Positions 57,401 to 60,400 of a stretch of DNA of 64,000 nt are shown in pieces. Made by a program: the position numbers. Position 1 is the stretch's first letter. Every line of letters starts with the position of its first letter. This DNA comes from Escherichia coli (GTDB lineage: Bacteria > Pseudomonadota > Gammaproteobacteria > Enterobacterales > Enterobacteriaceae), in NCBI RefSeq assembly GCF_030013205.1, contig NZ_CP122648.1; one strand, 5' to 3'.

Positions 57401-60400
57401 CGCTGGTGGAAAATGGTTGGCACGACGAAGCGTTTCTGGCGCGTTGCACCACCGGTTATGCCGTCTTCGCCTCTTATTTGCTGGGCGAGAGTGACGGAAT
57501 AGCCAAAACCGCCGAATGGGCGGCAGGGATTTGTGGAGTTAACGCAGAGAAAATCCGCGAGCTGGCGGCTCTTTTCCACCAAAACACGACCATGCTGATG
57601 GCTGGCTGGGGAATGCAGCGTCAACAGTTTGGTGAGCAAAAACACTGGATGATCGTCACGCTGGCGGCAATGTTGGGGCAAATCGGCACACCCGGCGGCG
57701 GTTTTGGTCTTTCTTATCATTTTGCCAATGGTGGTAACCCCACGCGGCGTTCTGCGGTGCTCTCTTCCATGCAGGGCAGCTTGCCTGGCGGCACCGATGC
57801 GGTAGATAAAATCCCTGTTGCCCGCATTGTTGAAGCACTGGAAAACCCTGGTGGCGCATATCAACACAACGGTATGAACCGACATTTCCCGGATATTCGT
57901 TTTATCTGGTGGGCGGGCGGTGCCAACTTTACTCATCATCAGGATACCAATCGCCTGATCCGTGCCTGGCAAAAACCGGAGCTGGTGGTGATCTCTGAAT
58001 GCTTCTGGACGGCTGCGGCGAAACACGCGGATATCGTTCTGCCTGCGACTACCTCTTTTGAGCGTAATGATCTCACCATGACCGGTGATTACAGTAATCA
58101 GCATCTGGTGCCGATGAAACAAGTGGTGCCGCCACGTTATGAAGCGCGTAATGATTTTGATGTCTTTGCCGAGTTGAGTGAACGTTGGGAGAAGGGCGGC
58201 TATGCGCGGTTTACGGAAGGAAAAAGTGAGCTGCAATGGCTGGAAACGTTTTATAACGTTGCCCGGCAGCGCGGGGCAAGCCAGCAGGTTGAATTGTCGC
58301 CATTTGCTGAGTTCTGGGAAGCCAACCAGTTAATTGAGATGCCGGAAAACCCGGACAGTGAGCGGTTTATTCGCTTCGCCGATTTTCGCCGCGATCCGCA
58401 GGCGCATCCATTAAAAACCGCCAGCGGTAAGATTGAAATATTCTCGCAGCGTATTGCCGATTATGGTTACCAGGATTGCCCTGGGCATCCGATGTGGCTG
58501 GAGCCGGATGAGTGGCAGGGCAATGCCGAACCAGAACAGTTGCAGGTACTTTCTGCTCATCCGGCACATCGTCTGCACAGCCAGCTGAATTACAGTTCTC
58601 TGCGCGAATTGTACGCGGTGGCAAATCGTGAGCCTGTCACCATTCATCCTGACGATGCCCAGGCGCGCGGCATACAAGATGGCGATATTGTTCGGTTGTG
58701 GAACGCACGCGGGCAAATTCTTGCCGGAGCGGTCATTAGCGAGGGAATTAAACCTGGCGTGATTTGTATTCATGAAGGGGCATGGCCGGATCTGGATTTA
58801 ACCGCTGACGGTATTTGTAAAAACGGCGCGGTGAACGTTCTGACCAAAGATCTCCCCAGCTCGCGGCTGGGGAATGGCTGTGCGGGTAATACGGCACTGG
58901 CATGGCTGGAAAAATACAACGGTCCGGAACTGACACTTACAGCGTTTGAACCACCGGCCAGCTCATAATCCAGGTGGGTAGTTGGGTTTCATCCTGCCAT
59001 GCGCAGTCGACAATGTGAAAACCCTGCGCATGGTAAAAATCTATCGCCGGTTGATTTTTTTGATAAACCTCCAGCATCAGATGGGGATGGCGCTGCTGCA
59101 CATACTGCATTAGCGCCTTACCAATACCGCGTCTGACGGCCTTCGGTGCGACAAACATTGCAGCCAGAAATCGGCCTTCCATAATGCTGACAAAACCGAG
59201 AAGCTTACCGTCTTCTTCCCAGACCCAGTTTTGCGCGTTGGCAAGATAGGCATCCCGCACCAGCGGAATGCAATCACGCCAGTAATTCGCTTTTATAAAG
59301 GGATGCCCCCAGGTTGTACTTTCCAGCCACAGTTCGAGGATCGCGGGGAGTTCTGAACGTTGCGCTTCCCGAATCATGGTTTATTTCCCGGATAGCAACA
59401 GCAGCCAACCACATGATCATTCACCAGCCCACATGCCTGCATAAAGGAGTAACAGATTGTGGTACCAACAAACTTAAAACCACGCTTTTTCAGGGCTTTA
59501 GATAGAGCGTCGGAGGCGGGCGTAGATGTAGGGATTTCGCTCAACGTTGTGGCTTGTGTCACCTGTGGTTGATGATTGACAAACGACCAGACAAAGTCGG
59601 CAAACGGTTCGCCGTTCTGTTCCATTTGCAGGTACGCCCGCGCATTACCAATAATTGCCTGAATTTTCCCGCGATGGCGGATAATCCCGGCGTACTGTAC
59701 CAGTCTTTCGACATCCTCTTCCTGCATTGCAGCCACCTTCACCGGATCGAACTGATGAAAGCTGGCGCGATAGTTTTCGCGTTTTTTGAGGACGGTGATC
59801 CACGATAATCCAGCCTGCTGCCCTTCAAGGCAGATCATTTCGAACAGTTTTTTACTGTCAGTTTCAGGCACGCCCCACTCATTATCATGGTAGGCAATAT
59901 AAAGCGGGTCCTGACTCACCCAGCCGCAACGTTCCATACTTTCCCTCGCTATGTACCCGATCGTAAAAATTTCAGCCGCTTTTCTTGACGCATCGGTTAA
60001 AAAGTCAATATTTAATACAGGGCTACTATGCCCGATATCCTTCATACAATGACAATAATATTGCCGAATTCGGCTCTTCCCTGGAGTCGTGTTAATGATC
60101 ATAAAAAAAAGCGGTGGTCGCTGGCAGCTAAGCCTGCTGGCGAGTGTGGTAATCAGTGCCTTTTTTCTCAACACAGCTTACGCCTGGCAACAAGAATATA
60201 TCGTTGATACGCAACCCGGACATTCCACAGAGCGTTACACCTGGGATAGTGACCATCAACCTGATTACAACGATATTTTGTCGCAACGTATTCAAAGTAG
60301 CCAAAGGGCGCTGGGACTGGAAGTCAATCTGGCGGAAGAAACTCCTGTGGATGTGACCAGCAGTATGAGTATGGGCTGGAATTTTCCTTTATATGAGCAG

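Follow-up and report, generated by a model that had tools for sequence, protein, structure and literature searches.

A conserved 32-bp tail-to-tail overlap of bisC and yiaC in Escherichia coli

The convergent genes bisC and yiaC of Escherichia coli leave no space between their 3' ends, which raises the question of whether both proteins truly end within each other's coding sequence and, if so, where the two transcripts stop. The window analysed here (the whole 64,000-nucleotide stretch of contig NZ_CP122648.1) contains the following features at this locus:

56635..58968, + strand: bisC CDS, biotin sulfoxide reductase, 777 aa, TTG start, TAA stop at 58966-58968
58937..59377, - strand: yiaC CDS, GNAT lysine acetyltransferase, 146 aa, ATG start, TAA stop running from 58939 to 58937
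59374..59937, - strand: tag CDS, 3-methyladenine DNA glycosylase I, first gene of the tag-yiaC operon, TGA stop
58937..58968, both strands: convergent overlap of 32 bp, from the ORF list and the raw sequence

The original prediction of a 32-bp 3' overlap between bisC (+) and yiaC (-) proved exact by the ORF list, the raw sequence and the RefSeq coordinates alike, and each stop codon lies inside the coding sequence of the partner gene. On the BisC side the shared stretch comprises two nucleotides of the L768 codon, residues 769-777 and the stop, and on the YiaC side two nucleotides of the I137 codon, residues 138-146 and the stop, with codon position 1 facing position 1, BisC position 2 facing YiaC position 3 and BisC position 3 facing YiaC position 2. 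The last 9-10 codons of each protein are accordingly written on the two strands of one 32-bp stretch; bisC is monocistronic, whereas yiaC comes second in an operon with tag. The longest-ORF listing overextends several neighbouring genes, for example tag (266 aa versus 187 aa in RefSeq), and affects only their starts.

bisC and yiaC both encode genuine proteins, one from each strand, as judged from Pfam, homology to solved structures, orthologues, a structure model and RefSeq. The bisC call is supported by the ORF list, the RefSeq annotation and the Pfam domains Molybdopterin_N, Molybdopterin and Molydop_binding, and the yiaC call by the ORF list, the RefSeq annotation and Pfam GNAT families, the acetyltransferase activity of YiaC having been published (PMC6199490). 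The two genes are unrelated and both are functional. The alignment of the C-terminal 200 aa of BisC with DMSO/TMAO reductases of solved structure runs until 2-3 residues before the chain end, and the BisC tail matches the ends of the solved DMSO reductases 1EU1 and 1DMS. Across Enterobacteriaceae, YiaC orthologues have 146 or 148 aa, and residues P134, T135, W136, M138 and W140 are invariant in a 22-sequence protein alignment. In the AlphaFold model of YiaC (mean pLDDT 94), residues 133-140 form the final strand, and the six residues behind it make up a tail of low confidence. The C-termini of both proteins are native. An origin of the overlap by recent stop loss in one gene was ruled out because both tails match the usual ends of their families. 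It is next to impossible that the overlap is an annotation artefact arising from a misassigned frame or stop or from a gene that is not real, as the Pfam domains, the structural homology reaching the C-terminus, the constant orthologue length, the confident model and the enzymology of YiaC all oppose it; moreover, the stops are fixed by the reading frame, and overextended ORF calls touch starts only. With both frames confirmed by homology up to their last residues, the overlap withstands the stop revision that the original prediction had allowed for, while the check on start codons proposed with it is irrelevant, since a 3'-3' overlap is set by the two stop codons alone.

The same arrangement is found well beyond the present strain. 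RefSeq places bisC and yiaC at the same coordinates in a genome matching the window at 100% identity over 58400..59500, K-12 MG1655 carries the same 32 bp (yiaC 3713652..3714092, bisC 3714061..3716394), and the order bisC, yiaC, tag occurs in 5,419 of 5,426 complete E. coli genomes. The overlap measures 32 bp in five further Escherichia lineages, in loci from Salmonella, C. amalonaticus, Enterobacter and Pseudescherichia and in one more locus, and 38 bp in Kosakonia, Lelliottia and Phytobacter. Fourteen further loci, from nine genera, have a 32- or 38-bp overlap, showing that it is inherited; a YiaC search of genome contigs returned Escherichia only, and the other genera were reached by protein search and contig look-ups. 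The 38-bp form, shared by the latter three genera, is due to a single silent change in bisC (Leu768, CTT to CTG) that adds two residues to YiaC. At the opposite end of yiaC, gene calls place the end of tag 23 nt into yiaC in other genera and 20 nt in for Kosakonia. The overlap is ancient and, because it is kept across the Enterobacteriaceae sampled, clearly no accident of strain or annotation; asking whether it exceeds chance is the wrong test for such a geometric fact.

The shared stretch also bears the mark of coding in both directions. Four of the 10 bisC wobble sites in the overlap are invariant, versus 1 of 87 upstream (p = 2.9e-4), and they face codon position 2 of YiaC M138, W140, Q144 and T145, of which only M138 and W140 are firmly frozen, Q144 and T145 differing in a few lineages of the 22-sequence alignment. 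Reciprocally, 8 of the 10 yiaC wobble sites in the overlap are invariant, versus 7 of 100 (p = 6e-7). Silent sites of either gene are therefore frozen opposite constrained positions of the partner, and this dual-coding signal is at the protein level.

With the two genes overlapping, whatever follows the stop codon in either mRNA is antisense to the coding sequence of the partner. The original prediction had reasoned that neither gene can have an independent terminator between them; literally no terminator can lie between bisC and yiaC, but it does not follow that they lack terminators of their own, because either transcript can stop within the coding sequence of the partner, and apparently each of them does. 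For yiaC, Adams et al. 2021 (PMC7815308, Supplementary file 2) tabulate a bicyclomycin-sensitive Rho region at K-12 3714344 (+), antisense to bisC, with a Rho score of 7.30, a significance of 5.5e-14 and downstream/upstream reads of 23/90 in untreated cells and 112/60 with bicyclomycin, values that come from K-12 in LB only, another strain than the present one, and from a method that gives a region and no precise end. The region lies 252 nt beyond the yiaC stop and maps to ~58685 on the - strand of the window (324-nt mapping, 97.8% identity, ungapped), within the following feature:

58662..58811, - strand: C-rich, G-poor stretch of yiaC-sense RNA, antisense to bisC, containing ~58685

This stretch, 126-275 nt past the yiaC stop, has C/G ratios of 1.5-2.4 in 50-nt windows and is untranslated RNA with more C than G, whereas bisC-sense RNA is just mildly C-rich over the same distance past its own stop. 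The yiaC end thus resembles known cases in which Rho terminates read-through or antisense RNA past stop codons, being bicyclomycin-sensitive and located 252 nt past the stop in untranslated RNA with an excess of C over G, a likeness that comes from the K-12 measurement and concerns the yiaC side only. In the proposed sequence of events, ribosomes drop off at the yiaC stop, after which the RNA made from tag-yiaC would enter bisC naked and cross the C-rich, G-poor stretch, and Rho would end it ~250 nt on, an end that is published for K-12 and that we infer for the present strain. The same supplementary file lists no Rho region on the bisC-sense strand, PMC7815308 gives neither yiaC nor bisC a curated Term-seq 3' end, and the TERMITe supplements contain no entry for either gene.

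The transcripts might instead end at intrinsic terminators embedded in the partner genes, for which two hairpins located just past the stop codons come into question:

58852..58874, - strand: hairpin inside bisC, ~63 nt past the yiaC stop, a weak terminator-like match
58995..59035, + strand: 12-bp inverted repeat inside yiaC, 27-67 nt past the bisC stop

The former would serve tag-yiaC and the latter bisC. Both hairpins beat shuffled sequences in stability (-18.9 kcal/mol, z -2.3, for 58852..58874; -20.2 kcal/mol, z -5.3, for 58995..59035 in the present allele), versions of both occur in several genera, and the - strand hairpin was picked by the consensus terminator scan. That scan, however, returned only 3 sites in 58000..60200 versus 2.6 expected in shuffles, with none on the + strand after bisC, and no convincing intrinsic terminator was found at bisC/yiaC, the count being no greater than in shuffles. 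What follows the - strand hairpin, AUCUUUGGUC, makes a poor U tract, and PMC7815308 records no Term-seq 3' end at this position; the hairpin is not supported as a functional element on account of this U tract and of a covariation score that was reached by 60 of 500 shuffles. The + strand repeat has a 17-nt loop, and an A-rich stretch without a U tract comes after the hairpin, which is broken in K-12 and weakened in several genera. Its pairing (85.1%) equals that of shuffles (84.6%) and its covariation falls under the shuffle mean, one apparent compensatory change being present in the Salmonella and C. amalonaticus loci, and it is likewise unsupported as a conserved structure for want of excess pairing or covariation and for its disruption in K-12. 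Its arms encode the conserved YiaC motifs HAQ and CAW, from which the repeat arises as a side effect. With neither hairpin covarying beyond column-shuffled controls, with the arms of both coding for conserved protein motifs, and with PMC7815308 assigning a Rho region yet no curated Term-seq end to the pair, we consider termination at these hairpins unlikely, though they could act as weak terminators or exonuclease barriers. The locus also departs from bidirectional intrinsic terminators, which likewise serve convergent 3' ends: bisC/yiaC has no intergenic space, and the scan found no G+C-rich hairpin there with an A tract before it and a U tract after it. No known RNA family was found near the overlap in Rfam. 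Returning to Rho, the bisC transcript is most likely Rho-terminated within the RNA antisense to yiaC and tag, which we infer because a credible intrinsic terminator, that is a hairpin with a U tract, is absent.

Since the transcripts overlap, the pair is a convergent excludon by the RNA-seq definition, and a published table of 165 such excludons in MG1655 includes yiaC-bisC (PMC12288877, Table 1), with transcript overlap in at least 50% of 58 MG1655 transcriptomes. Such a listing is close to automatic where coding sequences overlap and says nothing on regulation; excludons are defined by mutual exclusion, RNase III processing or interference, and bisC/yiaC is like them only in its overlapping transcription, detected in K-12 (PMC12288877). 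A functional excludon, maintained because it regulates, would require that strong expression of bisC depress tag-yiaC, or the reverse, by way of their complementary 3' regions, whether by collision of RNA polymerases or by RNase III cutting the paired RNA. Besides the transcript overlap, this reading draws on yiaC-sense RNA reaching at least ~250 nt into bisC before Rho acts, on the arrangement being kept in every genus sampled and on the link of both genes to stress, whether oxidative or from damage. Sulfoxides are the substrates that BisC reduces. yiaC, for its part, has been reported as induced by oxidative stress (PMC6199490). Against it, a literature search gave no reciprocal expression, RNase III or interference data for the pair, and conservation has a simpler cause in that an indel or stop shift would harm one of two constrained tails. 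The dual-coding signal, moreover, concerns protein and not RNA, whose structure is not conserved, and the stopping of antisense read-through by Rho points to a cell that restrains the overlap instead of making use of it. We therefore regard a functional excludon as improbable. There is a still slimmer chance that the overlap also couples bisC, with its role in sulfoxide repair, to the damage- or stress-linked tag-yiaC operon via antisense transcription, with Rho setting the reach, and was kept in all sampled genera partly for that reason; if true, bisC/yiaC would be a functional, conserved excludon.

The upstream end of yiaC and several other gene pairs in the window overlap on the same strand:

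59374..59377, - strand: tag/yiaC ATGA overlap, 4 nt
24479..24482, + strand: selA/selB ATGA stop-start overlap, 4 nt
290..293, - strand: lldR/lldD ATGA stop-start overlap, 4 nt
40684..40706, - strand: xylG/xylH overlap, 23 nt
1066..1066, - strand: lldP/lldR overlap, 1 nt, TAATG
11016..11016, - strand: mtlD/mtlR overlap, 1 nt, by RefSeq coordinates of an identical stretch

The ATGA overlaps predicted for tag/yiaC (also stated as 4 nt in PMC6199490), selA/selB and lldR/lldD (the window holds only the first 293 nt of lldD) and the 23-bp overlap of xylG/xylH were all recovered at these positions. The 4-nt ATGA overlap claimed for lldP/lldR was in error: the sequence there is TAATGA, the lldP stop is TAA and a single base (1066) is common to it and the lldR ATG. 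The mtlD/mtlR junction is of the same kind and had been missed. The five junctions of 4 nt (tag/yiaC, selA/selB, lldR/lldD) or 1 nt (lldP/lldR, mtlD/mtlR) share the canonical stop-start geometry of coupled operon junctions, a standard operon layout that would allow termination-reinitiation coupling, and translational coupling at ATGA and TAATG junctions is a reasonable expectation by analogy with established knowledge (PMC10666635). Pairing resembling a Shine-Dalgarno interaction is weak before yiaC (-4.3 kcal/mol), lldR (-3.1 kcal/mol) and mtlR (-0.1 kcal/mol), a weakness that would speak for dependence on upstream translation, and strong before selB (GGAGGUG, 8 nt upstream), xylH (GAGGAG, 7 nt upstream of the ATG) and lldD. 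xylG/xylH differs from the coupled junctions in that its 23 nt exceed the best-documented termination-reinitiation classes and in that xylH has a strong Shine-Dalgarno-like sequence of its own.

Taken together, bisC/yiaC is very probably an ordinary, ancient and stably inherited tail-to-tail overlap, in which the yiaC end is terminated by Rho and the two transcripts overlap. It is like other bacterial tail-to-tail pairs in that two true genes share their last few codons over a short overlap, and differs from them in no essential respect, though it is longer than the commonest, very short overlaps and unusually stable, the stop positions being the same across all sampled genera save for one 6-nt extension in three. 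Such pairs are not rare, a published count for E. coli putting 75 of 663 overlapping neighbour pairs in the convergent class (PMC4161906), and the overlap is real, ordinary and already known: it is present in the reference annotation, the pair is in the excludon list, the tag/yiaC overlap is in the YiaC paper and the Rho region is tabulated. Its value is modest, as a clean worked example of 32 bp that code both ways with visibly frozen silent sites, and it carries a caution for genome editing, in that a clean knockout of bisC or yiaC, or a C-terminal tag on either, changes the other protein.

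We determined the positions of both stop codons from the raw sequence, with the bisC TAA at 58966-58968 and the yiaC TAA at 58939 to 58937 on the - strand, and found that the two convergent genes share 32 bp at their 3' ends (58937..58968), as the original prediction held. The RefSeq coordinates are identical, and K-12 MG1655 harbours the same 32 bp (yiaC 3713652..3714092, bisC 3714061..3716394). The mechanical ORF list contains:

56635..58968, + strand, bisC (biotin sulfoxide reductase), 777 aa, TTG start
58937..59377, - strand, yiaC (GNAT lysine acetyltransferase), 146 aa

Since a 3'-3' overlap is set solely by the two stops, revisions of the start codons are irrelevant to it. 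The window is a chromosomal segment in the orientation opposite to the K-12 map, and across 58400..59500 it shares 100% identity with several strains associated with pigs. Gene names for the first 24 kb come from a RefSeq record matching at 100.0% in a single alignment, and those for the second half from one co-linear RefSeq record.

An overlap of this kind could be an annotation artefact, due to a wrong frame, a wrong stop or a spurious gene. BisC comprises three molybdopterin oxidoreductase domains, and over its final 200 residues it can be aligned with solved DMSO and TMAO reductases up to 2-3 residues from their chain ends (in 1EU1 the counterpart of the tail reads ...EKYAGAPVTVTVFDTPK, and the alignment stops at residue 778 of 780). 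YiaC is a GNAT protein by domain content and nearly equal in length to its closest solved relative, YjaB (147 aa); its 21 orthologues measure 146 or 148 aa, with P134, T135, W136, M138 and W140 invariant. In the YiaC AlphaFold model (mean pLDDT 94.2) the last beta strand spans residues 133-140 and is followed by a low-confidence six-residue tail, and the lysine acetyltransferase activity has been characterised by experiment (PMC6199490). Homology, orthologue lengths, the model and YiaC enzymology indicate that both tails are native rather than recently gained by stop-codon read-through, and the artefact is therefore excluded.

The bisC, yiaC, tag arrangement occurs in 5,419 of 5,426 complete E. 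coli genomes. A YiaC genome scan, with matches in Escherichia only, yielded five loci: one each from E. albertii and E. whittamii, two from other Escherichia species and one from a divergent strain that carries the E. coli label. All have the stops at identical positions and an overlap of 32 bp. Eight more loci were gained via protein search and contig look-ups: the overlap is again 32 bp in Salmonella, Citrobacter amalonaticus, Enterobacter ludwigii, Pseudescherichia and a fifth non-Escherichia locus (protein cluster names 'MULTISPECIES: Enterobacteriaceae' and a truncated 'Raoul...'); in Kosakonia, Lelliottia and Phytobacter (L013, L014 and L016) it measures 38 bp. In these three a silent CTT to CTG change at bisC Leu768 (within the stretch equivalent to window 58931..58939) converts the yiaC stop from TAA to TCA, so that YiaC gains two codons up to the next TAA and reaches 148 aa. 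The overlap is thus ancient. In L003 (Escherichia sp. MOD1-EC7003), which retains the 32 bp, bisC (5809..3521) appears to have 762 rather than 777 codons from the aligned start, a shortfall of 15 that is due to a deletion within the gene or else to a faulty assembly.

Within the overlap first codon positions face each other, the third position of BisC opposes the second of YiaC, and the second of BisC opposes the third of YiaC. A gapless alignment of 15 loci revealed that 4 of 10 bisC wobble sites in the overlap are invariant, versus 1 of 87 upstream (Fisher p = 2.9e-4), and that the frozen sites (58944, 58947, 58959 and 58965) oppose the middle base of YiaC T145, Q144, W140 and M138. Conversely, 8 of 10 yiaC wobble sites are invariant in the overlap versus 7 of 100 outside it (p = 6e-7), since those in the overlap lie opposite BisC second positions; the BisC tail, (L)TAF(D/E)PPA(S/N)x, is almost constant in these loci. 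The variable YiaC residues (139, 141-143 and 146) are exactly the sites of bisC wobble variation. As Q144 and T145 are altered in a few lineages of a wider protein alignment, the firm constraint on YiaC lies in M138 and W140 of the last strand. Nearly any indel or stop shift would harm one of the two constrained tails.

The further claim that neither gene can have an independent terminator between them stands in that there is no room between the genes; termination takes place instead inside the partner gene, by Rho in the case of yiaC in K-12. A consensus scan for intrinsic terminators returned 3 terminator-like sites versus 2.6 in shuffled sequence, with none on the + strand after bisC. Hairpins are present just past each stop:

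58852..58874, - strand, past the yiaC stop, -18.9 kcal/mol, z -2.3
58995..59035, + strand, past the bisC stop, -20.2 kcal/mol, z -5.3

Both have no following U tract, their pairing and covariation are no higher than in column-shuffled controls, and their arms code for conserved protein motifs; the 58995..59035 hairpin is broken in K-12. Adams et al. 2021 mapped a Rho termination region to position 3714344 (+) of K-12, which they categorise as bisC antisense (PMC7815308), with a Rho score of 7.30, a significance of 5.5e-14 and downstream/upstream reads of 23/90 in untreated cells and 112/60 after bicyclomycin (Supplementary file 2). This position, 252 nt beyond the yiaC stop, corresponds to window 58685 on the - strand (gapless, 97.8% identity over 324 nt), and the C/G ratio of the RNA 126-275 nt beyond that stop is 1.5-2.4, which is what a Rho loading region should show. 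The yiaC transcript is thus terminated by Rho inside bisC in K-12. The curated Term-seq lists of the same study have no yiaC or bisC entry. Solely from the absence of an intrinsic terminator, we infer that the bisC transcript probably ends by Rho-dependent termination in the yiaC/tag antisense region.

Unlike the convergent overlap, the junction of yiaC with the upstream tag gene is labile. Comparison of window 59374..59377 with loci L006 and L009-L016 (near position 3501) showed that E. coli and E. albertii have a 4-nt ATGA overlap and E. whittamii a 1-nt one (TAATG). Of the eight other loci, seven overlap by 23 nt and encode a Tag of 193 aa, and Kosakonia overlaps by 20 nt with a Tag of 192 aa. 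The variation appears to stem from the gain or loss of one nucleotide immediately before the yiaC ATG, which shifts the Tag frame. Among the ATGA overlaps predicted elsewhere, we recovered selA/selB (24479..24482) and lldR/lldD (290..293, with lldD cut by the window start) in addition to tag/yiaC, but not lldP/lldR, which reads TAATGA with an lldP TAA stop and so overlaps by one base (1066) rather than four; the predicted 23-nt xylG/xylH overlap is present at 40684..40706. A 1-nt overlap of mtlD/mtlR at 11016 had not been listed. All belong to the standard type of operon junction. Strong Shine-Dalgarno-like pairing precedes selB (-10.6 kcal/mol), xylH and lldD (-8.5 each), and weak pairing precedes yiaC (-4.3), lldR (-3.1) and mtlR (-0.1); on this sequence basis the latter three would depend most on termination-reinitiation. 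An in-frame GTG lies one base past the xylG stop, 24 nt into annotated xylH (40682..40706, - strand), and its use as start would abolish the overlap; the annotated ATG is likelier because a strong GAGGAG is positioned for it.

Mobile and accessory elements were also observed in the window. An IS1 copy (26303..27070) starts within the last 27 nt of selB (24479..26329), whose product is 616 aa versus 614 aa in strain CFSAN018748, and abuts a truncated yiaN (26990..28273) with its last ~25 residues replaced by IS1-derived codons, yielding a spurious convergent ORF overlap (26990..27055). The yiaY/aldB to yiaO genes are missing relative to CFSAN018748, which looks like an IS1-mediated deletion. 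Between ysaA and avtA, ~1.4 kb missing from CFSAN018748 (~31970..33555) holds an IS3-like IS1397 family transposase, per annotation of identical genomes, with an Rfam match to sRNA ES036 at its edge (33487..33529). The hokA/sok toxin-antitoxin locus (Rfam sok; 52279..52430 (+), 52428..52628 and 52713..53140 (-), including neighbours) shows a 24-bp convergent overlap of hokA with a small annotated hypothetical ORF and adjoins the cspA thermoregulator leader, where the neighbouring cold-shock gene is labelled cspE in the RefSeq record. Two stretches (3019..8274 and 16668..22156, both -) carry accessory genes that are absent from K-12 at the corresponding sites: a 1751-aa YadA-like trimeric autotransporter adjoining lldP, and an RHS core protein followed by a downstream Imm57 immunity gene; relative to strain ETEC4067, clustered SNPs lie within the adhesin from 5931 on.

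A published MG1655 list of 165 convergent excludons, each seen in 50% or more of 58 transcriptomes, includes the yiaC-bisC pair (PMC12288877 Table 1), and the 4-nt tag/yiaC overlap was described with YiaC (PMC6199490). Convergent overlaps of coding sequences are common, an E. coli survey having counted 75 among 663 overlapping adjacent pairs (PMC4161906). The finding thus contains nothing that had not been reported before. A second tight convergent pair, yibT (10208..10417, +) and mtlR (10429..11016, -) with 11 nt between the stops, is also in the K-12 excludon list (PMC12288877). A functional excludon coupling bisC and tag-yiaC expression, the only reading with some novelty, strikes us as very improbable, and the two constrained tails are enough to explain, without any regulation, why the overlap persists. 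The bisC/yiaC overlap is thus real, ordinary and already known, and a neat illustration of dual coding, with the CTT to CTG change at Leu768 as a direct case of a synonymous change in bisC altering the length of yiaC.
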